The position numbers and the translations under genes are program-made. Below the pieces are notes generated by a model. It ran no database searches and was not told the origin of the DNA. It saw only the letters and a program-made list of their open reading frames with translations. From Chloroflexota bacterium (GTDB lineage: Bacteria > Chloroflexota > Anaerolineae > Anaerolineales > Anaerolineaceae), in NCBI GenBank assembly GCA_012522475.1, contig JAAYKH010000030.1, forward strand, positions 22,063 to 86,062: a stretch of DNA of 64,000 nucleotides, in the 5' to 3' direction. Shown piece after piece: positions 1,516 through 64,000 of this stretch (positions are counted from its first letter, which is position 1; every line of letters begins with the position of its first letter).

Positions 1516-2619
1516 TTAACAGGCTGCTCTCCGGGCTAATTGATAGGCATCAAGTAATTTTGGGAAATTTAAAGTCCAATCTGCACGTTCTTCAGCCAGT
1601 TTCCTGGCACGCCTGCCATAAGCAGCCAGGTTCGAATCAGCAGCTAAAGCCAGGATTTTATCAGCCAGCGCATTTACATCGCCGGTGCTGAACAAATGGC
1701 CCACATCGCCGGGCCGGACCCATTCACGATTGCTGGGAATATCTGAAACCAGGGTCGGGCGTCCACAAGCCAGCGCTTCTAACAGGGAAACCGACGAGCC
1801 ATCACAGTGCGAAGCGCTGATAAATAGATCGCCAGCTCCATAAAAACCAGGTAAATCCTCCCGGGTGATTCGACCGGGAAAGTGCACGGCGTCGCCTACA
1901 GGCGCCAAAATCGCCCGAATTTGTTCAGATTGTGGGCCATCTCCAGCCAATAACAGTCTTAAATTGGGATTGCGCTGATAAGCCAGCACAAAGGCTTGCG
2001 CCAGTTCGTCAACGCCATAGGGGACAGACCAGGCACGGTTGCAAAAGAGAACAAAACCCTCTTCCCAGCCCAAAGACTGTCTAAGAGCCTGCCCGGCATT
2101 ATTTGCGTTCCGGGGTGAGAAATGATCTAAATCCACACCCCAGGGGAACAGGATCATTCGCTCATGCGGGAAGCCGTATCCAGCGGCTTGCTCAGCAACC
2201 GTCTGGCAGTCAGCGACCAGGACTGCGCTGCGTGCCAGAGCACAGCGTGTGGCCCATCGCATCCAGGGGCTGCGATCAGCATTACGCAGAAGGTCAAATC
2301 CCCAAGACATGCTTACCAGCGGTTGAAATTTCGCCAGTGCTGCTACTAAGGCCGGCCCCTGGATCGGTCCGGCATGGACCAAGTCTGGTTTTAAATCCAA
2401 CAGGATATCTTCCAGTTGTTTAATGCCTGCTTGCCAGCCATTCCAAAACGACCAATCTGGCTGATTGCCCCCCCAGGTTAATTCTTTAATTCCCTCAGGG
2501 GTCTTCGGTTGGCAGGTGTACATGCGCAGGCTGAACACCTGAAGTGTGGTTCCTGCCAGGGCGGATAAAAACCGTTGATCATGCGGACTATCCTGTGCCG
2601 TGAAGTAAAGAACCCGCAT
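1516..2619 (-). CDS. Glycosyltransferase family 4 (GT-B)
   Basis: C-terminal ADLFISASHCDGSSVSLLEALACGRP (E-x7-E-like) motif; SDIPSNREW. Confidence 0.9.
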   Translation of the reverse strand: MRVLYFTAQDSPHDQRFLSALAGTTLQVFSLRMYTCQPKTPEGIKELTWGGNQPDWSFWNGWQAGIKQLEDILLDLKPDLVHAGPIQGPALVAALAKFQPLVSMSWGFDLLRNADRSPWMRWATRCALARSAVLVADCQTVAEQAAGYGFPHERMILFPWGVDLDHFSPRNANNAGQALRQSLGWEEGFVLFCNRAWSVPYGVDELAQAFVLAYQRNPNLRLLLAGDGPQSEQIRAILAPVGDAVHFPGRITREDLPGFYGAGDLFISASHCDGSSVSLLEALACGRPTLVSDIPSNREWVRPGDVGHLFSTGDVNALADKILALAADSNLAAYGRRARKLAEERADWTLNFPKLLDAYQLARRAAC

Positions 2620-2661
2620 CAGATCTCAATCCTTTTGCTAAGCATGTCAAGGGTCGTTTGA

Positions 2662-3732
2662 CTACTCGCCAAATTGCGTCCATGACAAAGCCTGCCCGCC
2701 TGGTATGTGCACCAAAGCGGTTAACCCGATCACTTTGCCAATTTCATAAGGTAAAATCGCACCCGGTGTAGCTGGCCTGAGAATATCAATCATCTCTCGG
2801 GTTATGATCTCTCCCGGTTCGATTTCTCGGGCTGCCCGCAGGCAGCGTCGCTGGACAATGGCGGTCTCCTGCTCGTTAGCAGCAACAAACTTGTCCCCGG
2901 AGCCCATGGCGCGTTCAAGCTGACGGGTGGCTTTCACCATCGCATCCCAGGTTTCAGGGTTCATAGCAAAAGAATGATCCGGACCGACCCGGTCATTGTC
3001 ATCGGTGAAATGCTTTTCAATCACCCGCGCCCCCAGCGCCACCGCCCCTAGCACCGTCGCATGTCCATGTGTGTGATCCGATAGGCCCAATACAGCATCG
3101 GGGAACATGTTCCGGTAAGTATTGAGAACATTCAAGTGAATGCTATCGAAATTGCTATCTTCAGCAGTATAGTTGGTGTTACATTGCATCAATACCAGCT
3201 GTGGATTAATCTCTAAAATAGCATGTACCGCCCGCTGGACATCACCAATATCCGACGCACCAGTTGCCAGCAACACCGGTTTTCCTTTGCTGGCAATTCG
3301 CTCAACCGCTTCGATCCAGGTAATGTCGCCCGAGCCAATCTTATAAGCCGGCATATACGCATCCAGCCTATCGATAGCTTCAAAATCATAAGGCGACGAG
3401 AAATAATGAATCCCCACTTCATCACAGGTGGCTTTAAGTGCCGGCGTCCACTCAAAGGGAATTGAGGCATCTGCGTAAACTTCAGAAACCGACTTTTTCC
3501 ATTTGGCCTGATGAGAGACCTGGGCATTCATATGAGCAAAACCATAATCCGAAACGATCTTCTGTGCCTGGAAATTTTGAAACTTGGCAGCATCTGCACC
3601 AGCGTCTTTTGCCAAACGGATTAACAACTTGGCTCGTTCCAAACTGCCATCATGGTTGGCAGCAATATCGGCAATAAAATAGGTGGGGTGTGCCGCGCCT
3701 ATCAGGCGTTCAGCAATTTTCAGGTCCATCAT
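2662..3732 (-). CDS. N-acetylneuraminate/pseudaminate synthase family (NeuB/PseI/SpsE) with C-terminal SAF domain
   Basis: IADIAANHDG, AAKFQ, YKIGSGD, GLSDHT, IEKHFT motifs and SAF tail (RRCLRAAREI...LRP). Start placed after the GGAGG RBS. Confidence 0.93.
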   Translation of the reverse strand: MMDLKIAERLIGAAHPTYFIADIAANHDGSLERAKLLIRLAKDAGADAAKFQNFQAQKIVSDYGFAHMNAQVSHQAKWKKSVSEVYADASIPFEWTPALKATCDEVGIHYFSSPYDFEAIDRLDAYMPAYKIGSGDITWIEAVERIASKGKPVLLATGASDIGDVQRAVHAILEINPQLVLMQCNTNYTAEDSNFDSIHLNVLNTYRNMFPDAVLGLSDHTHGHATVLGAVALGARVIEKHFTDDNDRVGPDHSFAMNPETWDAMVKATRQLERAMGSGDKFVAANEQETAIVQRRCLRAAREIEPGEIITREMIDILRPATPGAILPYEIGKVIGLTALVHIPGGQALSWTQFGE

Positions 3733-3765
3733 GCCTCCCAATTAATGAATTGTTTTTTACCCTCA

Positions 3766-4683
3766 TCAAGCTGCAAATATTTGAAGTTTTCTCGGATAAC
3801 CTTCCTGCCAGCGCCGAAATAAACGTGCGATACCAGCGTTTATCGAGGGCAGCGGTCGACCAAGCGCAGCTTGAACTTTATCCGGGTTTAATGCCAGGTT
3901 TAAAGCACGAGGTGCGCCGCGTGTCAGTTCTTGCATCCGGACAGGCTCGATCAAATCAGTGCTGAAACCAAACTGTTCAGCAATCCGTAGGCCAAAATCA
4001 TATTTGCTTAAATGTTCCGGGCTGACCACATGAAAAAGACCCGACAGCTCAACCGCCAACATCTCCAACAGGATCTCTGCCAGGTCCTCCGTATACAGGG
4101 GGCTGAAATAGGTGTCCGTGAAACCTTTGATGGATTTTCCATCACGCAGGTTGTTGAAGAAAAATTCTGCCAGGCTGCGTTTTCCGGTCATGCTCCAACC
4201 AAAGAACACCACCCGGGCAATCACCGCATTAGGGTGCGCTTCATGAACGCGTTGTTCGCCTTCCAGATAAGTTTGGGCGTAAACGCTCAGGGGGTGGGTC
4301 GGCGCGTTTTCGTCATAGCCACCCGTAAAGCCATCAAAGACGGCATCTGTCGAAATATGGATCATTGGAATGCCCCAGCGTGCAGCAGCAGAAGCCAGTT
4401 CAGCGGGGACGTCCCGGTTCATCTGATGTGCCAGCTCGGGTTTGTTCTCTGCCAGGTTCAAATCGGCAATCGCCGCACAATGGATGATAGCTTCAGGCCT
4501 GGTTTTTTCAATCGTGACCAGTGCATCTGCTATTTTAAGCAGGTCGACAGAATAAGTATCAAACGGGACTTCACGCAGGTCATGTTGATTGGTTAAACCG
4601 CTTACCAGGTGGCCCTGGGCAGTCGCAACCAAGCAGAGATTCAAGCCCAAAAGTCCGCTGGCGCCCGTCACCAGCAAACGCAT
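3766..4683 (-). CDS. RmlD-like NAD(P)-dependent sugar-nucleotide 4-keto reductase (extended SDR)
   Basis: GASGLLG, IHISTDAVFDG, P-LSVYAQT. The usual YxxxK Lys reads as Y (YAQTYLEGE). Confidence 0.85.
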   Translation of the reverse strand: MRLLVTGASGLLGLNLCLVATAQGHLVSGLTNQHDLREVPFDTYSVDLLKIADALVTIEKTRPEAIIHCAAIADLNLAENKPELAHQMNRDVPAELASAAARWGIPMIHISTDAVFDGFTGGYDENAPTHPLSVYAQTYLEGEQRVHEAHPNAVIARVVFFGWSMTGKRSLAEFFFNNLRDGKSIKGFTDTYFSPLYTEDLAEILLEMLAVELSGLFHVVSPEHLSKYDFGLRIAEQFGFSTDLIEPVRMQELTRGAPRALNLALNPDKVQAALGRPLPSINAGIARLFRRWQEGYPRKLQIFAA

Positions 4684-4684
4684 A

Positions 4685-5689
4685 TTACAACTCCCCCAAA
4701 CTCAAACCAGTTTCGTTGCTGCTAACCATCGCCTGGATTTCTTCCACGGTCAGCCATTCGGTATTATTGTCACTGGCATAATGGACACCTTCTTCAAGTA
4801 GCGTTCCTTTTTTAGACCAGTCATAACCAAACCACAATGCAGCTTGCGGCTGAACCACATACATATCTTCCAGTTCAACCGTAGAGCGTGCTTCATCCTC
4901 CGAAATCAGCACTTCATGCAGTTTTTCACCCGGGCGTATGCCGATGTTGCGAACTTTCGCTTCCGGGGCAATAGCTTTGGCCAGGTCTGTCATCTTCATG
5001 CTGGGAATTTTAGGTACAAACACCTCACCGCCCTGCATCGTTTCAATGCAGCGGATCACAAACCGCACGCCCTGTTCAAGAGAAATCCAAAAACGGGTCA
5101 TGCGATCATCGGTAAGGGTGATTTCACCTTTTTCCCGCTGTTGGATGAATAACGGCACCACACTGCCTCGTGATCCGACAACATTGCCATAGCGTACACA
5201 GCTGAAACGTGTAGCACGACCGCCGGCATAAGCATTACTCTGAATCATCAACTTCTCGGCTGCCAGCTTGGTAGCGCCGTACAGATTAATCGGGTTAACA
5301 GCCTTATCCGTACTGAGCGCAAGGACTTTCTTAACCCCCGCATCAAGGGCTGCATCTACCACATTACTGCTTCCTAAAATATTTGTTTTAACGGCTTCCA
5401 TCGGGTTATATTCGCAGGCCGGCACCTGTTTGAGCGCTGCCGCGTGAACCACCAGGTCCACACCATTTAAGGCACGGTGCAAGCGGTCCAGATCACGTAC
5501 ATCACCAATAAAATAACGTAATTTAGGATGGTTAAACCCGGACATGCGCATCTCGTGCTGTTTGAGTTCATCTCGGCTGTAAATAATTAACCTGGCCGGG
5601 TTATATTCACTCATAATGACTTCAATAAATTTTTTGCCAAAAGAGCCCGTCCCACCGGTCACCAGTATGTGTTGCTTGGTCCAATCCAT
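4685..5689 (-). CDS. pseB: UDP-N-acetylglucosamine 4,6-dehydratase (inverting)
   Basis: GGTGSFG, IIYSRDELKQ, HAAALKQVPACEYNP, LSTDKAVNPINLYGATK, RYGNVVGSRGSV, MTRFWI, GIRPGEKLHE. Confidence 0.93.
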   Translation of the reverse strand: MDWTKQHILVTGGTGSFGKKFIEVIMSEYNPARLIIYSRDELKQHEMRMSGFNHPKLRYFIGDVRDLDRLHRALNGVDLVVHAAALKQVPACEYNPMEAVKTNILGSSNVVDAALDAGVKKVLALSTDKAVNPINLYGATKLAAEKLMIQSNAYAGGRATRFSCVRYGNVVGSRGSVVPLFIQQREKGEITLTDDRMTRFWISLEQGVRFVIRCIETMQGGEVFVPKIPSMKMTDLAKAIAPEAKVRNIGIRPGEKLHEVLISEDEARSTVELEDMYVVQPQAALWFGYDWSKKGTLLEEGVHYASDNNTEWLTVEEIQAMVSSNETGLSLGEL

Positions 5690-5717
5690 TATATTCTCCT
5701 GGAAGTTTTGCTAAAAA

Positions 5718-6641
5718 TTATACTTCAGATGCGTTTTTTAGCGCTCCCTCAGTCGGCTTGCTGATCAGGATCAGCGGATATTGCCCAATCCGGCCTAATA
5801 GCCTGGGAAAGCATTCTTCCAACCAAAAGATGATTTTCAGCCAGAACTTACCACCCCAATCCGGGTAAATCACAGATCGCAAGAAGGCCACACTGACACT
5901 CCGCCAGACCAGGATTTCAAAGGGTATCTTCTCGGAAAGCAGCTCGATCAAGCCGTCAGCGTCAAATTTCTCCACAAACGTCCCCGCTGGTGAAGGTGGT
6001 CCCACCGGCTGCGCTTTTTCAAGAGCTTTATCAGCCAAGTTCTCAGGCTCGATATCCTCAGCCCCTGCTTGATTGGCCCTTTCATCTCGCCAGGCTCGCA
6101 GACGCTTAATGTAATTCATAAATCTAGCCAGGCCAATCATCAAGGGTGCACGGGTCCAACCATCCACCACCACCATCTGCTGTCCAGGTTTTAGCACACG
6201 GTAAAGCCCCTCGAAAGCCATAAGCTTTTCCCCCAGGGGGACGTGATGAATCGTATGCAAAGCTGAAACACCATCAAAGATTTCCGATTCAAAGGGTAGG
6301 TGAGCGATATCGCCCACCACGTAAAATCCATGTGCGCCCACACGCTTGCGCGCTTCCCTGAGGGCAACAATCGAAATGTCCATGCAAACCCGCGTCCGGT
6401 AGCCTTCAGAATAAGTCAGGTATTCCGGGTATTGAACCGGTCCGGATCCCGCATCCAGATAATATATTCCCTTTTGAGCCAGGTGGCGTTTGACTCGCAT
6501 ATGACAGCGGTGCAGATATTCCTGTGAAACCGGGCGTAAATCCTCATATTGGGCATTCTGATACAGGGTTTCGCCAATGGATTGCCAGCCAACCCGGTTG
6601 TAAAATTCTCGCACAGTCTGTTTAATATGCTCTTCATTCAT
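5718..6641 (-). CDS. Class I SAM-dependent methyltransferase
   Basis: YLDAGSGP motif I, VGDIAHLPF, LHTIHH, YRVLKPG. Start trimmed to MNEEHIK. Confidence 0.85.
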   Translation of the reverse strand: MNEEHIKQTVREFYNRVGWQSIGETLYQNAQYEDLRPVSQEYLHRCHMRVKRHLAQKGIYYLDAGSGPVQYPEYLTYSEGYRTRVCMDISIVALREARKRVGAHGFYVVGDIAHLPFESEIFDGVSALHTIHHVPLGEKLMAFEGLYRVLKPGQQMVVVDGWTRAPLMIGLARFMNYIKRLRAWRDERANQAGAEDIEPENLADKALEKAQPVGPPSPAGTFVEKFDADGLIELLSEKIPFEILVWRSVSVAFLRSVIYPDWGGKFWLKIIFWLEECFPRLLGRIGQYPLILISKPTEGALKNASEV

Positions 6642-6699
6642 GTTGGAAGTAAATACCAGCTTTCTCAAAAAGTATTGGCCGATCGCACAAATCGTTCAT

Positions 6700-8283
6700 T
6701 CACCAGGTCAGTGGTACGCCGGTCAGAGCATCAAAGGTCTGGCCGTATTTTTGTTCACCTTCATCGCTCAACACATACACCATGGGGTAGGTGTGAATAT
6801 CCTTTTTCAAGTCCAAAAGATGCCAGGGAAAGGGCTTCGGGAAGGCAAAGAAAAACAAATAAGCATAACGCCAGGCCAGTTCAACCTGCTCCTGGTTCAA
6901 CCGGGCAGAGGAAAGATCGGCCAGTTTTTCGTCCAGGCTCGAAAAATACATCTCCCAGGTTTCAGGGTCCGTGGTAAACCCGCGGCTCCGGTAATGGGTT
7001 TTGCCAGCAACGATCACAGGGATACCAACCATGGCCGCTTCTAAGCCAACCGTGGTGGAATATACCAGCACCAAGCTGGCGATATCTAAAATATCATAGG
7101 TGTTGACCTTAGCCTGGGCTTCAACCAGGTGAAAATGCTCCGGAAACTCACCAACTGCTTTTTCAACAATGGAAGCCATAGAGGTACCATGCATTAACTG
7201 TTCACCTGGATGCAAACGAATAATTAGTTGTACATCATCACGATCTGAAAAATAACGCAAAGTGCGTACAACCCACTCCTTCATGCTATCGCTAAATTTC
7301 TGTCGCCCCAAGGTTAAACTGTCGCCAAGCACATTGGAAGCCAGCAAAACGATTGGGCGGTCATCAAGGTTGAGGGCTTTCTTCACAGCCGCGCTGCCCT
7401 GGGTGGCTGTTTCCTGCCACTGACGGGTGAAGTTCTGCCAGGTTTTCGAATTCACCCGGGCGGCATACAGGTCGCGCAATGGGTTCAATTGTGCCTCAGT
7501 CAGGGCATCCTTCCCACGTGCTGCCCAAAGTGCGTCTGTATTATTTTTCATGATCTCGGAATCCTGAGCCAGCCAAATACGTTCGCGCTGTTCACTGAAT
7601 TCGAAGGTCACCGTTTGCAAGCCCAAATTCTGTGCAACCTGGTAAACCATACCCATCTCCTGGATGCTGCCATTGGGGACAACAACCACATCAGGTTGAT
7701 AGGTCATCAGCCAGGCGCGTGCATTCAACGCGGCTTCCCGATTGCGCTTGACCCGCTCTTGAAAAAGCGGTTCTTGTTTGTCAATATCCTCCACCTGGAG
7801 TGCGTATTGAGCATCAAAAATACTCACCTGCTCAACAGCCTGTTCCAATTCTGGCGGTAAATGTTTCGAAAAAGGCTTGACATTCAAAAGCGACTGTACC
7901 TTTAAAACCCTGCCCGCCGGGCTGAGTACATCCCGAGCATAAAGGTTTTGGCGTCGCAGATCAAATCTATCAATTGGTTCATCCCAGCTGGCATAGGGCA
8001 TAAAGGACAGAGTCACCTGGTGGCCTCGTCCAGCCAAAGCAACACCCAGTAAAGCCGCATATTCAATCCAATAATGCAGGGTCGCAAAAATAAATACCTT
8101 ATTACCGGTTTCCCGCTGCTGGCGTGCTTCCTCAGCTTGTTGAACCGCTTCGGGGAGCACAGATTCCAAAAGGTTCAGTTTAAAATGTGCCTCCCAGGGC
8201 TTATGGCGCTGCACCAGGTGCCAGTAAAGTTCAGCTGTATAGGGCAGTTGCCCCAGTATTTTCTTAACACTGCACCGCTTCAT
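6700..8283 (-). CDS. Capsule polysaccharide biosynthesis-type protein (KpsS/Capsule_synth-like), candidate ulosonic-acid transferase
   Basis: C-terminal LASNVLGDS...IIRLHPGE...VYSTTVGLEAAMVGIPVIVAG pattern; located in the glycan operon. Confidence 0.6.
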   Translation of the reverse strand: MKRCSVKKILGQLPYTAELYWHLVQRHKPWEAHFKLNLLESVLPEAVQQAEEARQQRETGNKVFIFATLHYWIEYAALLGVALAGRGHQVTLSFMPYASWDEPIDRFDLRRQNLYARDVLSPAGRVLKVQSLLNVKPFSKHLPPELEQAVEQVSIFDAQYALQVEDIDKQEPLFQERVKRNREAALNARAWLMTYQPDVVVVPNGSIQEMGMVYQVAQNLGLQTVTFEFSEQRERIWLAQDSEIMKNNTDALWAARGKDALTEAQLNPLRDLYAARVNSKTWQNFTRQWQETATQGSAAVKKALNLDDRPIVLLASNVLGDSLTLGRQKFSDSMKEWVVRTLRYFSDRDDVQLIIRLHPGEQLMHGTSMASIVEKAVGEFPEHFHLVEAQAKVNTYDILDIASLVLVYSTTVGLEAAMVGIPVIVAGKTHYRSRGFTTDPETWEMYFSSLDEKLADLSSARLNQEQVELAWRYAYLFFFAFPKPFPWHLLDLKKDIHTYPMVYVLSDEGEQKYGQTFDALTGVPLTW

Positions 8284-8289
8284 CGTTAT

Positions 8290-9573
8290 TTATCTTTCAA
8301 CCTTCCCAATCTTCCATGCCAATTTTGGCCGAACCGGTCCAAGGCGTGGTTCAGGCCATTGCGTTCCAGGTGCGCCAGTAGCGTCTACAGTGAATGTAAG
8401 CGCCTTATCGTCCTGAAAATAGCGTTGAATACGATAAGTACTGGCGTTAACACCCAGTATGTAGCGGCCTTCATTCATTAAATCTGGCGGGATTTCACAA
8501 CGACTGATATAGCGTCCCGGGCCGCGGTTCACGTATCTGTCATACAACCGAGCATCGTCCGTATCAAAGCTGGTGAATACAAATTCACCCCGGGTGGTCA
8601 TCATATAAATGCCTACCCGTAATCCGCTGATCTCTTTAGTCAGCTGATAAACCAACTCGATTGAAAAGCCCTCTGCAGCGTTAACAGTATCGACCACTTC
8701 CCCAGCCGGGTTTAATACCCGCAGCGCCACAGGAACAAAGTCAGCGCCATGTAAAATATACGGGTCTTGGTCCCAGTAACGTTCACCTTGTTTTGTCAGC
8801 CCCATATTCAGGTAATGATCCACCGCATCAGGTGTTGGCGCGCGCATCACCATTTTCCCCTGATCAAGAACAATCGTCTCTTGCGTCAACCGCAGGATAG
8901 CAGACATATTATGGCTCACAAACAATACGGCACGGCCTTCCTGGGCCACATCACTCATCTTTCCCAGGCACTTGCGCTGAAATTCGGCATCGCCTACCGC
9001 CAACACTTCATCCACCACCAAAATTTCCGGTTCCAGGTGCGCAGCCACGGCAAAAGCCAACCGTAAATACATGCCGCTGGAGAAGCGCTTGACCGGCGTA
9101 TCGATAAATTTGGCAACTTCAGAAAATTCAACAATTTCGTCGAATTTGCGGTCGATCTCTTCTCGGCGCATACCGAGGATGGCGCCATTCAGGTAGATAT
9201 TCTCCCGACCGGAGAGTTCGGGGTGAAACCCCGTGCCCACCTCCAACAGCGAGCCCACCCGTCCGCGAATCTCGCCAAAGCCAAGCGTGGGATCAGTGAC
9301 CCGCGAGAGAATTTTCAGCAAGGTACTCTTGCCAGCGCCATTCCGACCCACAATGCCCAGCACCTGGCCGCGTTCAACCTCAAAACTGATGTCCTTCAAC
9401 GCCCAAATATACGAAGGGCTGTCATCACGTCCAGTGCTACGTCGTGTAAACAGCCGGCCCGCTCGCTTGACGCTGGTTGTCAGTACATCTCTCAACGTGT
9501 CGGGGCGCTCTTGCAACATCCCAATACGGTACTGTTTGGAGATATTTTCTAAACGAATAACAGGTTCAGGCAT
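8290..9573 (-). CDS. wzt: Polysaccharide ABC exporter ATP-binding subunit with C-terminal Wzt_C domain
   Basis: GRNGAGKST Walker A, LLEVGTGFHPELSGREN, FSSGMYLRLAFAVA, VVDEVLAVGD; extra C-terminal domain of ~170 aa. Confidence 0.93.
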   Translation of the reverse strand: MPEPVIRLENISKQYRIGMLQERPDTLRDVLTTSVKRAGRLFTRRSTGRDDSPSYIWALKDISFEVERGQVLGIVGRNGAGKSTLLKILSRVTDPTLGFGEIRGRVGSLLEVGTGFHPELSGRENIYLNGAILGMRREEIDRKFDEIVEFSEVAKFIDTPVKRFSSGMYLRLAFAVAAHLEPEILVVDEVLAVGDAEFQRKCLGKMSDVAQEGRAVLFVSHNMSAILRLTQETIVLDQGKMVMRAPTPDAVDHYLNMGLTKQGERYWDQDPYILHGADFVPVALRVLNPAGEVVDTVNAAEGFSIELVYQLTKEISGLRVGIYMMTTRGEFVFTSFDTDDARLYDRYVNRGPGRYISRCEIPPDLMNEGRYILGVNASTYRIQRYFQDDKALTFTVDATGAPGTQWPEPRLGPVRPKLAWKIGKVER

Positions 9574-9579
9574 AAATTC

Positions 9580-10440
9580 CTATACAATATCGGCAAAGGT
9601 TTTTTCCATCCGCCGAAAATAATATAAACCGCTTACCAACAAGATCAACACCACCCCGGCAGAGATCAACATGGTCATATCGGGCGGTTCTGTACCCAAC
9701 AATGCCCAGCGAAATCCCTGAATCACCCCTACCATAGGGTTCAACCCATATAATAACCGCCAGGGGCCTGCCGGGATAATATCAATGGGGTAAACAATCG
9801 GAGAAGCATACATCCAAACCTGGATGATGAAGGGCACCATGTGCTGCACATCGCGATATTGCACATTCAACGCCGAAAGCCAGAGCCCAACGGCCAACGC
9901 GGTCAACAACGCCAGCAGGATAATCGGCAACAGCCACAGGTTATTCAGACTGGGCCAATGTCGATAGTAAATCATCACCCCCAGCAGAACCAGAAAAGAT
10001 ACTAAAAAATCCACCAGAGCTGCAAAAACTGTCGACAAAGGAATGGCGAGCCTGGGAAAGTAGATTTTGGTGATCAGGTTGGCATTTCCAACCAGGCTGA
10101 CACTCGACCGCTGCAAGGCCGTGGCAAACAACTGCCAGGGAAGCAGTGCAGACAGGGCAAATAATGGATAGGGCAGATTTTGGGAGGGTGTCTTTAACAA
10201 AATGCCAAAAATCATCGTGAAGATCAACACGGTTAATAATGGCTGCAGCAAAGCCCAGCTAACCCCCAGAATAGCCTGCTTGTACCGCACTTTGATATCA
10301 CGCCAGGTAAGGAAAAAGATCAACTCGCGATAACGCCATAGCTCTCGCAGGTCAAGCCCCAGCCAACCCTTTGCCGGACGCAGAAAGATCACAGGGGTCT
10401 GGTCTTTATTTTCTCGGGTAATTTCCGTCAACTTACACAA
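9580..10440 (-). CDS. wzm: Polysaccharide ABC-2 exporter permease
   Basis: RDIKVRYKQAILG, NLITKIYFPR, YRDVQH, LNPMVGVIQGFRWAL. Confidence 0.93.
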   Translation of the reverse strand: MCKLTEITRENKDQTPVIFLRPAKGWLGLDLRELWRYRELIFFLTWRDIKVRYKQAILGVSWALLQPLLTVLIFTMIFGILLKTPSQNLPYPLFALSALLPWQLFATALQRSSVSLVGNANLITKIYFPRLAIPLSTVFAALVDFLVSFLVLLGVMIYYRHWPSLNNLWLLPIILLALLTALAVGLWLSALNVQYRDVQHMVPFIIQVWMYASPIVYPIDIIPAGPWRLLYGLNPMVGVIQGFRWALLGTEPPDMTMLISAGVVLILLVSGLYYFRRMEKTFADIV

Positions 10441-11394
<954 letters not shown>

Positions 11395-11846: not shown

Positions 11847-13859
11847 TTATTTAATTTTATCAATCGGTTTTGGGGCCAGGAGGGATATCTGACCATCATC
11901 GGCAGTAAACACAATCTCATAATACCGATCTATTGGCTTGGCAACGTATTTAACCCATGCATTATTTTCTTCAGCAAAAGGCTTTGTTTGATCTTTTAAT
12001 CCCAAGTGCAGGGGGCTAACAACAATCAAATCAAAGCGTTGTGTTTGGATATCGTTTTGGAATCTTTCTATATACGGCTCATTTTCTGACATTGCCATTT
12101 CCATCAAGAACACTTTCTCATATTCTGGCACCAATTTCACGCCCTCAATCAAACCAAAGGTGAGCAGATGGCGATCTTCGATGAAGAGCACTTCACCAGC
12201 TTCTTGAGTTCTTTGCTCGATTAATACTTGCATCTGTTCTATAACTTGCCAAGCCTTCGTTAAATCTGGGGTTGGATAAGGCCTCAAGGCATTGACGGTA
12301 AACAGAATTGGCAGTAACACAGCCAATAATATCAGTGTTAAAGGTGGATTCATCCGGGTCAATCGGGTCGGGTCATCTGCCGAAAACTGGTTAAATAGAA
12401 CGTAGACAGCCGTTACTGCCAGGAAAACCAGAAAAGCATCCAAATTGTGCAGGTTATTTCCCCCGCCGATCTTTGTGCTGACAACCAGGCCGGCAATTAA
12501 TAAAGCGGCGTGCAGGGTTAACAAAGCCAATAATCGCAGCGGTCGCCAAGCTTGTTTTGCAGTTAATACTCGCCAAAGGATGATAACAAACGCTGGTACA
12601 CTGGCAATCAACAACAGGTTGATTATACCCATGCCATAGGCTTCGTTTGGAAATAAGCGATAGATTAGTAACGGTGATTTAAAACTGGTAACAAAATCTT
12701 CTGCCGGTCGTCCGCTGAGAAAAATATAAGCCAGCGATGATCCAAATGCAATCAGCAAGCCTGAAAATGCAGTCAACACCGGCCAAAGCCAGTATTCCCA
12801 AAAGGATTGTTCATTGAGCGGTTTTTCTAAAATGTACATTGTGGCTGCCAGCATACCTGCCACGGGGAACCAGTTAACACGGCTGAAACCAGCCCATAAG
12901 GATGCCAACACCATTATAAAAAACGACCAGACAAGCTTATCCTTATTAAAGCCTAGCAATACAATAATGATGACTACCATCAAGTGAAAATAAACCGGGC
13001 CTTGAAAGGTAAACAGAGAAAACCAGGCAACAACACCCAGACCAATCCAAAAGTTTGCGGGTTTAATTCTTCTACTTAAAGCAATCCCCCCCGCCAGTGT
13101 CAATCCAATCCACAGCAATACTTGCCAAAGGCGATGACCCCATAACCCCAAACCTGGAATTAGAAATGCAGCAGATTGCATTAAATATCTTGAGGGATGC
13201 AAGGATGACCATGGCACCCGAAAACCATAAATCCTTTGTGAGAAAAATAAAGATGCATCATAAAACCATGTAGTTTCTGACCAGCCGATAGAAAATGGAT
13301 AAGCTTGAATATCAGGAATCCAGTACAGCACCCAAATTGCCAACCCGCACAGGCTGAAACCACCGATTAACGCCGATAAAGGTTTAACTCTTCCAGTGCC
13401 AATCAGCATCAGTGCACACAGCAGACTTAAATGCCCCAAAATAAAAAACTGCATCTGCTGATTCTGGAAGAGAAAAGATCCCTCAAAAAGGGTATGGTAG
13501 ATCAATAAGAAGATCAGAATTGTTACCAGCAACCAGTTTATAAAGCCCAGCTTTTTGAAGAGCTGGATTATTTTACGAGCAAATCGTATTGCTTGCACAC
13601 CAATACGTTGCTCTAGTAAAAATAGGCCTACCAATAAGGTCAGGGCATAAAGAAGTCCCGGCGACAATCTGACTAACATACTCCCCGAAAAACCCAGAAC
13701 AGACCCCAGCCCATAGGTTGCCAACAACGATGGTAAAACACTGATAAGAGTAACCAGTAAAGCCAAGAGGAGATAAACCCGCAGAATTGTCAATTGGCTC
13801 AGTTGAGGGCTTTCTGATGATGCGTTATTATGCAAGTTGATTTTATTCAGAAGAGGCAT
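11847..13859 (-). CDS. Multi-pass membrane protein, GT-C-like glycosyltransferase candidate
   Basis: Many hydrophobic segments; SIGWSETTWFYDAS loop; soluble C-terminal domain; sits in the glycan locus. Confidence 0.5.
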   Translation of the reverse strand: MPLLNKINLHNNASSESPQLSQLTILRVYLLLALLVTLISVLPSLLATYGLGSVLGFSGSMLVRLSPGLLYALTLLVGLFLLEQRIGVQAIRFARKIIQLFKKLGFINWLLVTILIFLLIYHTLFEGSFLFQNQQMQFFILGHLSLLCALMLIGTGRVKPLSALIGGFSLCGLAIWVLYWIPDIQAYPFSIGWSETTWFYDASLFFSQRIYGFRVPWSSLHPSRYLMQSAAFLIPGLGLWGHRLWQVLLWIGLTLAGGIALSRRIKPANFWIGLGVVAWFSLFTFQGPVYFHLMVVIIIVLLGFNKDKLVWSFFIMVLASLWAGFSRVNWFPVAGMLAATMYILEKPLNEQSFWEYWLWPVLTAFSGLLIAFGSSLAYIFLSGRPAEDFVTSFKSPLLIYRLFPNEAYGMGIINLLLIASVPAFVIILWRVLTAKQAWRPLRLLALLTLHAALLIAGLVVSTKIGGGNNLHNLDAFLVFLAVTAVYVLFNQFSADDPTRLTRMNPPLTLILLAVLLPILFTVNALRPYPTPDLTKAWQVIEQMQVLIEQRTQEAGEVLFIEDRHLLTFGLIEGVKLVPEYEKVFLMEMAMSENEPYIERFQNDIQTQRFDLIVVSPLHLGLKDQTKPFAEENNAWVKYVAKPIDRYYEIVFTADDGQISLLAPKPIDKIK

Positions 13860-14096
13860 CTTTATCTTTGACGATTAATGATGAGAGGCTGTCTATGGTG
13901 TTACTTTCAACATTAATTGAATTCGATGAACGGCACGGCTGGTGACATCTCTCAAACATCATTGAACATCCCCCTGGCAGAGGGGGGCGATGTTCGCAAG
14001 CGTATTTATTTGGAGCACTTTACTCAAAGGTCAGCCCGATCCTTGCGCAAAGTGCAATCATTTTTCAAACAAGCAATAATATGTTCGACAGACAAA

Positions 14097-15665
14097 TTAT
14101 AATGACGGGATATGATCTGTCAAGTCACCAGGCGGATGCTTGCGATCCCACAGCCAGCCGCCAACAATAACCCCCAAACTCAAGATAATGATCGCCCCAA
14201 CCATCTCCCACAAACCCAGCCGGGGAAAAAGAGGATAATAACGGCTTAGGTACCACTGGGTGAAAAACAACACAAAGATACCCTCAATTAAAAAAGTTCG
14301 TTTCAACCACCGATCGTGGGTATGCTTCGCAAAAGCCAAAGCCCAGCCTGACACAACTGCCATCCAGGGCAGAAAAAGTGTGCGGTAGCGTGGATTATCC
14401 CATTGGTCCCCTCCTGCACGGGCTGAAGCAATCAAAACCCAACCCCAAATAACAAGAACAAACGCCAGAATCATTTTACGTTGCAGAGACGGCGACAACC
14501 ACCAGGCTCGAAACAAGGCATAGGCTAATAAAGGAAATAGTAAATACCATCCCAAAGCCCTGAAGATGGCTAAACTATGCCATATTAGGGGAGCAGGTGC
14601 GGCTATTCCAGCTGGGAGTACGGGCTGTAAAACCCCATAGATAAAAATAAAGGGGAAGTGCAACCAGGTCGGTAGCTGACTCAGTTGAAATTGAACCCTG
14701 CCTGATTTAGTAATTGTTTGCTTGGCATCCCAATGCAAAACAGAGACCACCCAATCGCGCATAAGCCAAAATCCCAGCAGAATTCCAGCCAGGATCAATG
14801 CCCAGCCCAGTATTTTCATCCATTTTTTCGGCAACTCTGCTGATTTAATGACCCAAAGCCACAAAAACACAGCCCCAAATATCGGCAAAGCTGACCGGAA
14901 AGAAAACAAGAGCAAGCTGATAGTGCTGACCGCAAAGACAACCAGTGCTTTGCGATCTCGCGTTCTTTCCACCCATCGTGAAACCGACCAAAACAGCATG
15001 GTGAAAAACAGGATGATAAAGGGTTCCCGCATTTGCGATGCAGACAATAAAATACTTTCAGGGTAGAGAACCATAATCCAGCCTGCCCAGGTCGCGGCAC
15101 AAGGGCTGAGTTTACGGTTTAAACCCCTTATTAAAAATGGAATACTCAGCGCCATCGCACCGGCTGCCAATATCGTAATTAAAATTGGCCGGTGTTCATC
15201 TGGGCTAATATAGCGGTAAACAAAACTGCTTAACGCCAGCAAACCACCGTATTGATCAACCTCGTATTCTTCACTGAATGCCATTGACAATGGCTGGTCT
15301 GATTGTGCAAGCGCCCAGGCATTGCGATCCCGACGATAGGCGTCCTCAAAGACGTAACAAGCCTGTTGGATATCGATTTCATAACCAAATCGAGGCAAGC
15401 CCCAGGTCAAAATAACACCGTACCCCACCCTCAAGAGGAAAGCCAGAAACATCATTAAAGCCAGCGTCTTTCCAGTGCCGGCCTTCTTCCAAGCAACAAA
15501 TAAGATGCCTGCAACCACAATAATCATCAGCGAAGTTGATAAAAAGCCCCGCCAGAAATCACCCTGCTGCAAAACAGCCTGGATCAGGCCGCCCAGGCCA
15601 AGGCTGGCAAAAAAAACTATTCCGAGATGAGATAGCCATTGAGGACGCTGTTTTCGTTCAACCAT
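14097..15665 (-). CDS. Multi-pass membrane protein, GT-C-like/polymerase-like candidate
   Basis: Hydrophobic helices with an acidic loop (FEDAYRRD...EVDQYGG). Start trimmed to MVERKQ, overlapping the upstream stop. Confidence 0.5.
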   Translation of the reverse strand: MVERKQRPQWLSHLGIVFFASLGLGGLIQAVLQQGDFWRGFLSTSLMIIVVAGILFVAWKKAGTGKTLALMMFLAFLLRVGYGVILTWGLPRFGYEIDIQQACYVFEDAYRRDRNAWALAQSDQPLSMAFSEEYEVDQYGGLLALSSFVYRYISPDEHRPILITILAAGAMALSIPFLIRGLNRKLSPCAATWAGWIMVLYPESILLSASQMREPFIILFFTMLFWSVSRWVERTRDRKALVVFAVSTISLLLFSFRSALPIFGAVFLWLWVIKSAELPKKWMKILGWALILAGILLGFWLMRDWVVSVLHWDAKQTITKSGRVQFQLSQLPTWLHFPFIFIYGVLQPVLPAGIAAPAPLIWHSLAIFRALGWYLLFPLLAYALFRAWWLSPSLQRKMILAFVLVIWGWVLIASARAGGDQWDNPRYRTLFLPWMAVVSGWALAFAKHTHDRWLKRTFLIEGIFVLFFTQWYLSRYYPLFPRLGLWEMVGAIIILSLGVIVGGWLWDRKHPPGDLTDHIPSL

Positions 15666-17004
15666 TAATAACCTGAACCTTCTTTCGTTTCGGTAAAATC
15701 CACACTTCCCACGACCGATAAGCAGCCCACAACACCAAGAAAACCACGACTGTTTGCAGCGGCACCAGAAAGCGCGGATTGTCGCCATGGTCTATTAATG
15801 AGGAGGCCACAGCCGATGCCCAGACGGAACCTGCAAGTATCACATGGTAGGTCGTAATCTCCCATGCTTCCCATAGCCGTTTCGAAACCAAGATTAACAG
15901 GCTGGCAAAAACGAAGGTCAAATTGGCCACAAATAACAAAGCACGCATGCCAAGTATTAAAAGCGGCAACACGGAAGCCAATACTGGTGAGGAAATCCCG
16001 CCAGGGTTCCAGTAAACCGGCGCCCGCCAAAAGAGCCACCAACCCCTCAATACCCGAGAGAGATATTCGCCAGGGTGTGAACGAATCAGATCAATTGAGA
16101 TACTCTGTAACGTGCGTGAAAGCTGGTAAAAGTTTTGTCCGCTGGCCGCCTGCATGGCTGGGATCGCATCCCAGATGGCATTACCCTGGCTGCCTGTGTT
16201 AGCTATACGGGCATCTCGATAGTCCAGGTAGATTTCACGCAATTCAGCATAGTCATCCGGTACTGCCTCAAAATAATATCCAGTATGTTGCACCAGGTGA
16301 TAACCCGTCATGGTCGTCAGGCTAAACATATGATAGTTACTTTGTATCCAGCGCATCCACCCGCCAACCAACAGGATGGCTGGCAATAGCACCGCCACTA
16401 AAGGCTTCCATTGTATGTGGATCTTTTTTTTGTCAAAATTAATACCTAAGCTGAATGCCAGCCAGATCGGCATAAAAACAAACAACGGTCGGGCCAAAGC
16501 CGCCAGCGCGGCTGTTAGCCCAATTCCCAGCCCCAGCCACCAAGAACGGTGTTGGCGATCTTTGAGCCAAATAAATGCACCTAAAAAAGCCATCGTCAAC
16601 CAAAAAGTTGACAGCGTTTCAGTTAATAAATTTGCCTCAAAAAACAACTGCCCCGGGTTCAAGGTATGTGCTAGCGCTGCCAGCCCACCCACATAAGGTT
16701 TACCGCTTGCCCGATAGCCAATATAAAACCAGGCCAGGGTGATTCCTAAACCCAAAACCAATTGAGAGGCATAAACCACCCGATCAGAGCCAAAAAGCGC
16801 TATCCAGACGGGGTAACCTGGTGTACGTGTGCCGTCATAAACCTTAAATCCACCTAAAACAGCCTCAGCCGATCGACGATAACTATATGTATCGCTATAA
16901 GAAACTGGTGGATAACTGATGAACAACCATGCTCTCAGAACGATCGCAACGATCAAAACCATTGCCAACCAGATTAAAAGTCGTTTCTTTACCGGGTTAA
17001 TCAT
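15658..17004 (-). CDS. GT-C (PMT/ArnT-like, GT39/83) membrane glycosyltransferase
   Basis: YSDTYSY loop after TM1, RTPGYP, LLTETLS, ARP, and NPRF motifs typical of PMT_2-like proteins. Confidence 0.65.
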   Translation of the reverse strand: MINPVKKRLLIWLAMVLIVAIVLRAWLFISYPPVSYSDTYSYRRSAEAVLGGFKVYDGTRTPGYPVWIALFGSDRVVYASQLVLGLGITLAWFYIGYRASGKPYVGGLAALAHTLNPGQLFFEANLLTETLSTFWLTMAFLGAFIWLKDRQHRSWWLGLGIGLTAALAALARPLFVFMPIWLAFSLGINFDKKKIHIQWKPLVAVLLPAILLVGGWMRWIQSNYHMFSLTTMTGYHLVQHTGYYFEAVPDDYAELREIYLDYRDARIANTGSQGNAIWDAIPAMQAASGQNFYQLSRTLQSISIDLIRSHPGEYLSRVLRGWWLFWRAPVYWNPGGISSPVLASVLPLLILGMRALLFVANLTFVFASLLILVSKRLWEAWEITTYHVILAGSVWASAVASSLIDHGDNPRFLVPLQTVVVFLVLWAAYRSWEVWILPKRKKVQVING

Positions 17005-61984: not shown

Positions 61985-62455
61985 CTATTCCATCTCCTGG
62001 CGACCGTTTTCTTCGGCTGGCTGTTCCAGTTTATCAGGTTCATCGCCGGGTAAATCAGAAAGATCAATCTTTTCTTCCATGGTCACCTTGCCCCGCAAAA
62101 AAGCACCCTCATTAGTGGAAATTGATTGAATAATCACATCACCATACACCCGTCCGGTGGCACGAATTTCTAATTTTTCCGCGACAATCTGTCCGCTTAC
62201 CGACCCCGCCACAATCACCGTCCCCGCTTTAAGCACCTTGCAGGTCACCCTGCCAGTCTCACCAATTGTGACCAATCCGCGCACAGCAACTTCGCCTTCC
62301 AAGGCACCTTCAATGCGAACACCGCCTTTTCCGCGCAGATCACCTTTCCAGCTGATACCAGGCCCCAGTACCGAGGTCACCCGTTCAACCGGCTTGATTG
62401 AGGAAACGTCAGGAGTAGATTTCTTTTTTGCAAACATACGCTCACTGCCTTTCAT
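61985..62455 (-). CDS. Bactofilin (polymer-forming cytoskeletal protein)
   Basis: SVLGPGISWKGDL..GGVRIEG..V.I.ETGRV..VIVAGSVSGQI..LEIRATGRVYGDV. Start is 62455 or 62437. Confidence 0.92.
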   Translation of the reverse strand: MKGSERMFAKKKSTPDVSSIKPVERVTSVLGPGISWKGDLRGKGGVRIEGALEGEVAVRGLVTIGETGRVTCKVLKAGTVIVAGSVSGQIVAEKLEIRATGRVYGDVIIQSISTNEGAFLRGKVTMEEKIDLSDLPGDEPDKLEQPAEENGRQEME

Positions 62456-62501: not shown

Positions 62502-63614
62502 TCAGCGCCTTGGCGGCCAGATCGTTCCAGCAGGAACAATTCCGTCCTCGGGCACATCTGCTTTGACAGTTGCCCCGTTGCCAATGCGCGCCCGTTCGCC
62601 TATACGCACATTCAGGTTGACCGTGGCACGCATGCCAACCAGGGCTGCTTCGCCCACCTTCACACCGCCAGCCAGGGTTGCCCCCGGCGAAAGGTTGACA
62701 AAAGGCGCCAACTCACAATCATGTGAGATAATCACGCCAGTATTGATCAGGCAGCCAAAACCAACCCGAACCCTGATCCCAATGTACGCCAAGGGGAAAA
62801 CCTGAATACCATCATCCAGAACCGCGCTTTCTTCTAAAAAAGCGGTGCGGTGAACCACCGTGGGGCAATGGAAACCCGTTTCTGCCAAGCGTTCATACAC
62901 CTGCAAACGGGCTGGTAAATCGCTGATCCCACCCACACCATTTACCGCCAGGCGAACCCCATCCTGAGTCAGTTTACTCAGTTTTTCTCCCCCCCCTAAC
63001 ACGGACAACCCATCGATCTGCATGCCCGGCTGTAAGCCATCATCCAGGAAGCCAAGCAGCTCGTAATTTCCGGAATGGCGTATCAGGGCAGCTAATGAAC
63101 TGCCATGCCCACCTCCACCGTAAATCACCAGCCGTTTTTCTCCTTCCGGGATGGCTGCTCTGGCTGCCGGTTGATCCGCAGAAATAAGCGCCAGAACCAT
63201 TTCTCGGGTTACCAGAACACCCTGCGGTAACCCTTCCAGCGTCAGGCCCTTCGCCAGGGCTAATTCATGCGCCGGCTCGGTGATGCGTAAACCCGGCAGT
63301 GAGGGTTGTCCCCCGCCTTCTCTAAACAGGACATCTGCCCAGGGTGGCAGAGATGGGTCTTTGGCGTCAGGCGCAGCACCAATGTACCCCAGCACATCGC
63401 CTGCCTGCAAAGTGTCGCCTTCTTCATACAGCATCCCCACGAGATAACCGCTGGATTCTGCTCGAATTTCACCGGTAGATTTGGTTGTTTCGATCACTGC
63501 AACCATCTCTCCCCGGGTTATCACCGCTCCTTCTTTGACCGCCAGCGAAACAAGCAGGGCTTCTGGTTCGTTGGGGTTTACCAACGGGATTTTGATCGGG
63601 ATCAGTTTATCCAT
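62502..63614 (-). CDS. Fusion: lipoyl domain + E3/E1-binding (PSBD)-like segment + PglD/NeuD sugar acyltransferase
   Basis: VIETTKSTGEI lipoyl motif; RITEPAHELA..KGL..VTREMV PSBD-like; LVIYGGGGHG Rossmann domain; hexapeptide repeats with INTGVIISHDC. Confidence 0.85.
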   Translation of the reverse strand: MDKLIPIKIPLVNPNEPEALLVSLAVKEGAVITRGEMVAVIETTKSTGEIRAESSGYLVGMLYEEGDTLQAGDVLGYIGAAPDAKDPSLPPWADVLFREGGGQPSLPGLRITEPAHELALAKGLTLEGLPQGVLVTREMVLALISADQPAARAAIPEGEKRLVIYGGGGHGSSLAALIRHSGNYELLGFLDDGLQPGMQIDGLSVLGGGEKLSKLTQDGVRLAVNGVGGISDLPARLQVYERLAETGFHCPTVVHRTAFLEESAVLDDGIQVFPLAYIGIRVRVGFGCLINTGVIISHDCELAPFVNLSPGATLAGGVKVGEAALVGMRATVNLNVRIGERARIGNGATVKADVPEDGIVPAGTIWPPRR

Positions 63615-64000
63615 GATGAAACACCATTTCTCTTACTCGGGCAATGATATCTTCGTCACCGGGCAGGGATGCCAATTCAAGGTCAGGCGCCACAGGGATT
63701 ACACCCTCCCTGGCGGCCAGGCGTCCCGCTTGTTTTAAGTTTGTCCCCAGTTCCTCTGCCGTTCGTGCGACCACCTCCGCACCCCAACCCAATGAGAAAG
63801 TGCCTTCCTCAACCGTGAGCAAGCGGCCTGTGCACCTCACAGAGTCGAACACTTCCTTCAATTCAAAGGGCGCCAGCTGGGTAGGTACCAACAATTCACA
63901 GAAAATTTCCATTTCATAAGCCAGTTTGCGCATCGCACCAAGCGCCAAATGAGCCATATAGCCATAAGCTGCCAGGGTCAGTGTTGCTTGTGGCGCTGAT
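63607..64000 (-). CDS. 2-oxoacid dehydrogenase E1 beta / transketolase C-terminal domain (5' end outside window)
   Basis: Frame open to the window end: ATLTLAAYGYM...TGRLLTVEEG..GWGAEV..RLAA..IPVA..LE..LP. Confidence 0.85.
   Translation of the reverse strand, partial: SAPQATLTLAAYGYMAHLALGAMRKLAYEMEIFCELLVPTQLAPFELKEVFDSVRCTGRLLTVEEGTFSLGWGAEVVARTAEELGTNLKQAGRLAAREGVIPVAPDLELASLPGDEDIIARVREMVFHHG

Follow-up and report, generated by a model that had tools for sequence, protein, structure and literature searches.

At one end of a 64,000-nucleotide stretch of an Anaerolineaceae contig (JAAYKH010000030.1, Chloroflexota assembly GCA_012522475.1; referred to here as the window) lies a gene of 370 codons (62502..63614, minus strand), the product of which joins a lipoyl domain, a linker and a peripheral subunit-binding domain (PSBD) to the PglD_N domain and left-handed β-helix of a sugar N-acyltransferase. 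The gene overlaps one encoding the β subunit of the E1 component of a 2-oxoacid dehydrogenase, and the E1-β/fusion pair, or triple with the E1-α gene past the window end, has the make-up of a 2-oxoacid-dehydrogenase-like machine in which a transferase of the PglD/LegH type replaces the core of the E2 component. Our working hypothesis, which we consider moderately probable, is that the E1 loads an acyl group on to the lipoyl arm and that the β-helix domain transfers this group to a nucleoside diphosphate (NDP)-4-amino-4,6-dideoxy-hexose, bypassing coenzyme A (CoA). From the architecture, conservation, gene neighbourhoods and fold described below we infer lipoylation, the flow of acyl groups, the acceptor and the independence from CoA. 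The wider proposition, that a lipoyl-armed β-helix machine with its E1 represents a new class of multienzyme, forming a CoA-free channel for acyl groups from 2-oxo acids to sugars of the bacillosamine or legionaminic type, seems to us evenly poised. Such a channel could deliver an acyl group other than acetyl, for example glycolyl, without an acyl-CoA pool.

The fusion gene and the E1-β gene overlap by 8 nt (ATGGATAA), a stretch that holds the TAA of E1-β (63607–63609) and the ATG of the fusion (63612–63614). Within the window the E1-β gene (63607..64000, minus strand) is represented by its 3' part, the last 130 codons with the Transketolase_C domain (Pfam, E 8.7e-14; NCBIfam pyruvate dehydrogenase (PDH) E1-β, PRK09212, E 4.5e-14), and it runs past the window end; its product is 70% identical to the E1-β of the Anaerolineae locus L003. 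An independent contig of 3.7 kb (L001), from the metagenome of an anaerobic digester, encodes an identical fusion protein, preceded by a complete E1-β gene (351 aa) and a partial E1-α gene. This identical protein, together with hundreds of full-length homologues, rules out an assembly chimera, and the fusion is therefore not an artefact of assembly. The original prediction, made from the letters of the window, had described the gene overlap, a lipoyl domain with the motif ETTK (E42-T43-T44-K45), a PSBD-like segment, a PglD/NeuD-like Rossmann domain followed by a β-helix with the motif SHD (S297-H298-D299), and the lack of the usual E2 core, all of which are borne out by the searches reported here. 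It had also entertained the possibility that the fusion is peculiar to this one assembly, which the L001 protein and at least 293 matching sequence clusters show not to be so.

An AlphaFold2 model of the fusion, calculated from an alignment of 83 relatives, has a mean predicted local distance difference test (pLDDT) score of 91.4 and consists of a β-barrel (residues 1–80), a disordered linker, a two-helix domain (108–147), a Rossmann-like domain (161–245) and a β-helix extending to the C-terminus. The first of these, the lipoyl domain (residues 1–80; 63375..63614, minus strand; pLDDT 90–98), matches Pfam Biotin_lipoyl over residues 9–78 (E 1.1e-10) and carries its predicted lipoyl-lysine at K45 (codon at 63480–63482). 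Its closest solved matches are the lipoyl domains of E2 and protein X (1ghj, E 1.6e-5; 2dnc; 1pmr), with biotinyl domains ranking below those of E2 (1dcz, E 2.5e-3). Across alignments of 105 and 83 relatives, with identities to the query down to 24–27%, K45 never varies and E42 is retained in at least 98%; the motif about the lysine is IETTKS in the window protein and ET[TS]K[AS] across the family, and the Met-Lys-Met (MKM) motif of biotinyl domains is absent around K45. An Ala/Pro-rich flexible linker of unconserved sequence follows (residues 81–107; 63294..63374, minus strand), which contains the only stretch of the model below pLDDT 50 (residues 93–102).

The next segment (residues 108–147; 63174..63293, minus strand) resembles a PSBD with a loop three residues shorter than in canonical members. 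Pfam E3_binding gives no significant match to it in the window protein, and matches only two of the 83 relatives at E≤1. When a profile of the segment built from 55 relatives (A4) is compared with PDB sequences, the best matches are solved PSBDs (E 3.9e-7 to 1e-3) from the E2 chains of PDH and 2-oxoglutarate dehydrogenase (1w4i, E 3.9e-7; 2eq9_C; 1w4h; 2cyu; 1bal). The two helices (113–121 and 137–146) are modelled at pLDDT 86–89, and A115 is invariant in the relatives. On profile comparison and modelled fold, then, we identify the segment as a PSBD. A PSBD-like segment is also present in a solved protein of 388 aa entered as 'alpha/beta-hydrolase (202)' (PDB 7qjm_A, residues 39–76; E 9.4e-6 to the family profile); this is probably an AcoC-like protein, and hence another instance of replacement of the E2 core.

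The remainder of the chain comprises the PglD_N Rossmann-like nucleotide-binding domain (residues 161–243; 62886..63134, minus strand; Pfam PglD_N, E 6.5e-11), with the motifs GGGGHG (H170) and LDD (D191), and the left-handed β-helix acyltransferase domain (residues 246–365; 62520..62879, minus strand; Hexapep, E 2e-11). Residues 161–360 score 178.6 bits against NCBIfam TIGR03570 (NeuD/PglB/VioB), the curated cut-off of which is 160.8. The core of canonical E2 chains, which resembles chloramphenicol acetyltransferase (CAT-like; Pfam 2-oxoacid_dh), finds no match in the window fusion even at E≤0.1, and no E2 catalytic domain is present in any of the 95 loci that we collected for the family: similarity to a canonical E2 is confined to the lipoyl and linker part (query residues 4–186), occurs in eight related loci and never reaches the core. 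With the 2-oxoacid_dh domain absent from the window protein and from all 95 loci, identity as a canonical E2 is ruled out. From the order of its domains, the chain has the layout of an E2 subunit in which the CAT-like core has been exchanged for a trimeric β-helix transferase.

A Foldseek search with residues 161–365 returns PerB, the acetyltransferase domain of PglB (PglB-ATD), Pcryo_0637, PglD, VioB and WeeI (TM 0.84–0.91), and all the top matches are enzymes that N-acetylate the C4 amine of NDP-4-amino-6-deoxyhexoses. Judging by this modelled fold, the acceptor is likely to be an NDP-4-amino-4,6-dideoxy-hexose, the substrate class of PglD, LegH, PerB and VioB, and in some relatives it can be a precursor of a nonulosonate. 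In alignment with PglD of Campylobacter jejuni, H298 (codon 62721–62723) corresponds to the catalytic His125, N291 to Asn118 and G316 to Gly143; His125 of PglD has been described as the general base (PMC2943079).

On the donor side, the 83 fusions were compared with eight relatives of the acetyl-CoA type (six stand-alone enzymes from plasmids, PglD and the PglB acetyltransferase domain). Residues of the acceptor side and of catalysis are common to both groups: H298 and N291 (99–100% conserved in the family) are shared with all eight, and G166, G168, G169, H170 and D191 (at least 90% conserved in the relatives) are shared with the stand-alone enzymes. In contrast, four residues of the β-helix, E261, S297, M328 and N346, are invariant (100%) in the fusions and are found in none of the eight, which have A/S/G, D/E, A/V/I/T and A/G, respectively, at these positions. 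Since positions 261/279/297/315 and 310/328/346 are spaced by 18 residues, they fall on successive stacked coils, in two stripes along the helix. M328 aligns with Ile155 of PglD and N346 with Gly173, which are reportedly contacts of the pantetheine arm of acetyl-CoA. The pattern of these four residues is suggestive of, and would fit, a changed acyl donor.

The association with E1 was assessed over the 95 loci, in which neighbours were counted by tblastn and by hidden Markov models run on six-frame translations. An E1-β-like sequence is located directly upstream of the fusion in 75 of the 83 loci that have more than 300 nt of upstream DNA, and both E1-α and E1-β are upstream in 48 of the 55 with more than 2.2 kb; the E1 takes the form either of two genes or of one fused protein of ~650 aa. 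Where genes have been called (the window, L003, L007, L009 and L093–L096), the E1 and fusion genes overlap by 4–11 nt. Gene order and overlap thus identify E1 and fusion as a conserved, translationally coupled module across phyla. Six loci contain a full-length fusion with no E1 directly upstream (L032, L058, L064, L081, L086 and L092); an unannotated gene abuts the fusion in L032 and L058, and a DegT gene is still found downstream in L064. The E1 of these six may be encoded elsewhere in the genome.

The coupled E1 appears, from its sequence, to be catalytically competent. Its thiamine diphosphate (ThDP) motif, the activating β-Glu and both catalytic histidines are ~100% conserved among 44 α and 57 β sequences, the histidines having been matched to α-His271 and β-His128 of the Geobacillus enzyme by alignment to a Bacillales reference in L006. 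Papers from the Perham group reportedly assign to Geobacillus β-His128 the protonation of the dithiolane during reductive acylation. Whether split or fused, the E1 of the module comes closest to PDH E1 (TIGR03182, 190–228 bits, about half of the equivalog cut-off of 394; E1-β, PRK09212); it constitutes a separate subfamily of PDH-like E1, and its scores permit no specific assignment of substrate. The PDH-like character of the E1 makes acetyl or glycolyl, as C2 units, the default expectation for the acyl group. Relative to human PDHA1, the module has invariant polar residues in place of hydrophobic ones, Thr for Phe in GF(C)H and His for Tyr in YRxHG, and invariant Gln for Met in both GGSMH and ENNRYGMG. 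Such polar replacements in the pocket hint at an acyl group other than plain acetyl, and we very tentatively suggest a substrate more polar than pyruvate, such as hydroxypyruvate, which would give glycolyl.

The fusion belongs to a large, old family. In a HMMER search of 1.84 billion cluster representatives (clusters at 50% identity), at least 293 clusters match it at E≤1e-30. Of the 150 best matches, the majority are full length (~345–400 aa), extending from the lipoyl domain to the C-terminus with identities down to 28%. E42, A115, H170, R236, H255, N291 and H298 are invariant or at least 90% conserved in the two alignments. Members with a named source fall into seven bacterial groups, and these sources include Anaerolineaceae, Armatimonadota, Phycisphaerae, Gemmatimonadetes, Betaproteobacteria (Rubrivivax) and Pseudomonadales; the nearest named relatives are metagenome-assembled genomes (MAGs) of Candidatus Brevefilum and Anaerolineaceae (Chloroflexota), and a scan of contigs with the window protein alone matched two Anaerolineae MAGs. 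In a collection of plasmids from cultured organisms the full fusion is absent and only stand-alone acetyltransferases were found. The arrangement is widespread and uncharacterized: its members are labelled in databases only as 'NeuD/PglB/VioB family sugar acetyltransferase' or as hypothetical, and a literature search, incomplete in coverage so that prior publication is possible, found no description of the fusion architecture.

Across the family, the module is recurrently located among genes for amino-sugar biosynthesis. Heading the neighbour clusters by size is a DegT/DnrJ/EryC1 aminotransferase, encoded just downstream in the same orientation; next in size come short-chain dehydrogenase/reductase (SDR) epimerases or dehydratases and a PglC-like Bac_transf sugar transferase directly upstream of E1. 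In 64 non-redundant loci with usable flanks, DegT is found within 6 kb in 20, Bac_transf in 15 and SDR in 14. Stand-alone relatives in cultured Deinococcus and Sulfitobacter occur in the order 'sugar transferase, acetyltransferase, DegT', the same slot as that of the fusion. In a Pseudomonadales MAG (L093), DegT, Polysacc_synt_2, Bac_transf, E1 and fusion follow one another in that order, a complete bacillosamine-type (pgl-like) set of which the fusion is the only N-acyltransferase. A Phycisphaerae locus (L095) contains, in this order, a NeuC-type epimerase, E1, fusion, methyltransferase, CBS-NTP-transferase, SDR, DegT and Maf-like protein, a gene content that identifies it as a legionaminic-acid-like cluster, and in L020 and L070 a cytidylyltransferase or CBS-NTP-transferase comes after the fusion. 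A marine polysaccharide cluster (L007) has the order PIG-L, E1, fusion, WbqC, NTP-transferase, SDR, GFO-type oxidoreductase and glycosyltransferases, the gene for a PIG-L-family de-N-acetylase (198–851) being directly 5' of E1 and that for a WbqC-family protein (3984–4670) directly 3' of the fusion; a possible variation here is removal of an N-acetyl group and its replacement by another acyl group.

Lipoyl genes join the module in L047 (1124–3515). Here an LplA-type lipoate-protein ligase (LplA-B_cat, E 9e-55) is encoded by a gene that overlaps both the fusion gene and a gene for E3, a flavoprotein of the dihydrolipoamide-dehydrogenase type with Pyr_redox_2 and dimerization domains, a CLNYGC disulfide motif, a C-terminal HPTVGE motif and 30% identity to Bacillales Lpd. 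Biotin carboxylase and carboxyltransferase are not among the recurrent neighbours, nor is acyl carrier protein (ACP), PP-binding proteins occurring only in the non-ribosomal peptide synthetase (NRPS) genes of L009 and L010. In four Bacteroidota-like loci (L009 and L010, 1–7947; L011 and L012) the E1–fusion pair comes after NRPS genes (adenylation, peptidyl carrier protein, C-A-T) and a TonB-dependent receptor, which suggests that some members of the family acylate a non-sugar amine, for instance in a siderophore-like product. The original prediction had proposed passage of an acyl group from E1 via the lipoyl arm to a sugar, possibly a product of nonulosonate genes elsewhere in the window. Comparative genomics, through the coupled module, the PglD/LegH slot and the operon with LplA and E3, lends weight to the transfer itself and none to the connection with NeuB.

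We envisage the following cycle. Lys45 would be lipoylated by a lipoate ligase, after which the PDH-like E1 (α2β2), docked on the PSBD, would decarboxylate a small 2-oxo acid or cleave a related donor and, as its conserved catalytic residues suggest, generate S-acyl-dihydrolipoyl-Lys45 by reductive acylation. The linker would then let the acyl-thioester swing into the donor groove, which lies between subunits of the β-helix trimer and is the site at which PglD accommodates the pantetheine arm of acetyl-CoA; LpxA and LpxD offer a parallel in that their donor is acyl-ACP. Acting on an NDP-4-amino-4,6-dideoxy-HexNAc bound to the PglD_N domain, His298 would take a proton from the C4 amine, and transfer of the acyl group to it would give an NDP-2-acetamido-4-acylamido-2,4,6-trideoxyhexose, a precursor of the bacillosamine or legionaminic-acid type. 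The dihydrolipoyl arm would finally be re-oxidized by an E3 supplied in trans, and free CoA would be unnecessary for the cycle as a whole.

This scheme is the most economical reading of six facts taken together: the invariant lysine, the PSBD, the coupled E1, the acceptor site, the operon slot and the L047 operon. Several observations nevertheless weigh against it. The canonical DKA motif is absent around K45, with TTKS or TSKA in its place; about 10% of loci have no adjacent E1; and E3 and the ligase are adjacent in only one of the 95 loci (L047). Neither DegT nor Bac_transf is found within 10 kb of the module in the Anaerolineae loci, or in the 64-kb window. Modules beside NRPS genes imply that some acceptors may be other than sugars. 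Lastly, acetyl-CoA could itself supply a simple acetyl group, which leaves the advantage of the scheme unclear for any but an unusual acyl group.

In an alternative reading the fusion is an ordinary acetyl-CoA-dependent enzyme of the PglD type, every catalytic residue of which is indeed present, with the lipoyl domain and PSBD serving to tether or regulate the E1 or as an electron sink while the E1 performs some other step, for example ThDP-dependent C–C bond formation on a 4-keto sugar, as has been proposed for E1-like pairs in branched-sugar pathways. AviB1/AviB2 are E1-like pairs without lipoyl partners that have been proposed to act in branched-chain sugar biosynthesis, a point in favour of such a division of labour. 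Carboligation, however, requires no lipoyl arm, and the lysine is invariant in more than 100 divergent sequences; the E1-β histidine, to which a role in reductive acylation has reportedly been ascribed, is 100% conserved, a lipoate ligase and an E3 share one operon with the fusion, and the donor-side residues are unlike those of every acetyl-CoA enzyme compared. We therefore regard this reading as unlikely. The N-terminal domain might alternatively be biotinylated or unmodified, acting as a carboxyl carrier or as a purely structural barrel-sandwich domain, given that Pfam Biotin_lipoyl spans both modifications, that DKA is missing and that there are weak matches to biotin carboxyl carrier proteins (NF005457, E 2e-6). 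The lack of Met-Lys-Met, the higher scores of E2 lipoyl domains than of biotinyl domains, the PSBD that follows the domain, the E1 rather than a carboxylase that precedes it, the LplA gene adjacent in L047 and the want of biotin carboxylase or carboxyltransferase as a recurrent neighbour combine to make this highly improbable.

A different resolution would keep the lipoyl chemistry and change the acceptor: the fusion would be a non-homologous E2, its β-helix trimer moving the acyl group from dihydrolipoyl-Lys45 to CoA in a minimal complex like pyruvate or acetoin dehydrogenase, the acyl-CoA perhaps being used locally. The chain order of lipoyl domain, linker, PSBD, linker and trimeric core mirrors that of E2, β-helix acyltransferases bind CoA (the Foldseek matches were solved with CoA or acetyl-CoA), AcoC provides a precedent for a replaced E2 core (although the match to NF011457 covers the lipoyl part only), and the Anaerolineae neighbourhood lacks an aminotransferase. 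Yet the apparatus for a nucleotide-sugar acceptor (PglD_N, GGGGH, LDD, N291 and H298) is strongly selected, and in many phyla the gene is placed in amino-sugar operons that otherwise lack an N-acyltransferase. The residues unlike those of CoA users form stripes on the β-helix, presumably in the donor groove, and E3 is almost never adjacent. Transfer to CoA is accordingly, in our view, distinctly unlikely, and we retain transfer from the lipoyl arm to an amino sugar as the preferred reading.

For the organism of the window itself, we infer the function of the module from the family and not from its own neighbourhood. The gene order conserved among Anaerolineae runs FBP aldolase and ODP (on the opposite strand), GDPD, SDR, 3-methyladenine glycosylase, E1-α, E1-β, fusion, bactofilin and ProRS; the SDR is GalE/LegB-like, below cut-offs. 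An operon with a sugar 4-aminotransferase and a 4,6-dehydratase is found in many relatives, whereas the window and its Anaerolineae sister loci have only an SDR nearby, and no E3 partner was found in the 64-kb window. Genes that the original prediction had proposed to look for beyond position 64,000 were found in part: E1-α and E1-β are upstream in L001 and the sister loci, and the sought aminotransferase (DegT) is not within 10 kb in Anaerolineae. On the 3' side, the window fusion is followed by a bactofilin gene (61985–62449, minus strand) and then by proS. Bactofilin follows the fusion also in L002, L003, L045, L051 and others, at 47–77 nt in eight loci of the Anaerolineae clade and at ~2.25 kb in a ninth, so that the pairing is conserved. 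In L003 (7485–8078), and likewise in L002, E1-α begins within the 3-methyladenine DNA glycosylase gene (TIGR00567, E 4e-57), with an overlap of 8 nt, and the glycosylase, an odd partner, appears to share an operon with E1-α in Anaerolineae.

The window also contains a polysaccharide gene cluster (758–11394, minus strand), made up, all on that strand, of genes for GT1 (1516–2619), a NeuB+SAF nonulosonate synthase (2662–3741), an RmlD-like reductase (3766–4683), a Polysacc_synt_2 dehydratase (4685–5689), a methyltransferase (5718–6668), a Capsule_synth-like protein (6700–8283), Wzt (8290–9573), Wzm (9580–10440) and an SDR epimerase (10444–11388). No aminotransferase or N-acetyltransferase was seen in the cluster, which may extend past the window start. 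The original prediction had tied the fusion to the nonulosonate genes at 1–6 kb, but these lie 51 kb away, the sister genomes keep the module in a neighbourhood of its own, and the window holds no DegT or Bac_transf; a functional link to the NeuB/Polysacc_synt_2/Wzm–Wzt cluster (1–11 kb), possible in itself, is at this distance unsupported. The SDR epimerase gene of the cluster is split into pieces of 233 and 81 aa by an in-frame stop (10687–10689, minus strand); the gene could be a pseudogene or differ between strains, or the stop could have arisen through an error of sequencing or assembly. Beside the cluster (11847–17004, minus strand) are three large open reading frames (670, 563 and 448 aa) with no Pfam match at E≤1e-5.

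To our knowledge, lipoyl swinging arms are found almost only in central metabolism (2-oxoacid dehydrogenases, glycine cleavage and acetoin cleavage), with the Qnc natural-product route in addition, and the PglD/LegH class of sugar N-acyltransferases is regarded as acyl-CoA-dependent. The combination proposed here draws on known kinds, 2-oxoacid dehydrogenase complexes and PglD-type transferases, and predicts new enzymology. If correct, it would be the first β-helix sugar acyltransferase supplied by a lipoyl arm and a second case of a non-homologous replacement of the E2 core, and would provide a new route for N-acyl groups on precursors of bacillosamine and nonulosonates, sugars that serve many bacteria as glycan determinants in surface recognition. 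Cell-envelope biosynthesis would then include chemistry that depends on lipoate, together with a hitherto unknown family of N-acyl decorations of glycans, and the proposal would explain the hundreds of entries named 'NeuD/PglB/VioB family sugar acetyltransferase' that are preceded by 'pyruvate dehydrogenase E1'.

Compared with PglD of C. jejuni, PglB-ATD of Neisseria, LegH, PerB, VioB and WeeI, the fusion has the same two-domain fold, catalytic His and Asn, nucleotide-binding motifs and membership of TIGR03570, and in many loci of the family it occupies, like the PglD/LegH class, an operon slot beside DegT, a dehydratase and a PglC-like transferase. Unlike that class, it possesses an N-terminal lipoyl domain and PSBD, a coupled E1 and the residues E261, S297, M328 and N346, and its predicted donor is a protein-bound acyl-dihydrolipoyl group instead of acetyl-CoA. 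With E2 chains it shares domain order and an adjacent heterodimeric E1 with conserved catalytic residues; it differs from them in having no CAT-like core, in having TTKS/TSKA in place of DKA, in the PSBD loop shorter by three residues, in an E3 that is usually outside the operon, and in a predicted acceptor that is an amino sugar and not CoA. AcoC, the E2 of acetoin dehydrogenase, combines a lipoyl domain with an α/β-hydrolase fold and still passes acetyl to CoA; in both AcoC and the fusion the lipoyl arm is kept and the E2 core is replaced by an unrelated fold, the replacement fold being a different one in the fusion. LpxA and LpxD, which are weak sequence and fold matches, likewise are β-helix enzymes that acylate a UDP-sugar from a carrier thioester, yet their carrier is a separate phosphopantetheine ACP, whereas that of the fusion is its own lipoyl domain, predicted to be charged by E1. 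A parallel in carrier loading is offered by QncN/QncL/QncM of quinocarcin biosynthesis and SclQ1–4 of scleric acid biosynthesis, ThDP/lipoyl systems that make a glycolyl unit for biosynthesis (PMC6335953). There, as predicted here, a PDH/transketolase-like ThDP enzyme loads a C2 acyl group on to a lipoyl domain, and some relatives of our module are likewise located beside NRPS genes; however, QncL and SclQ4 retain an E2 acyltransferase domain of the canonical kind and have an ACP as their recipient, whereas the fusion has no recurrent ACP neighbour and carries as its catalytic domain the β-helix of a sugar N-acyltransferase.

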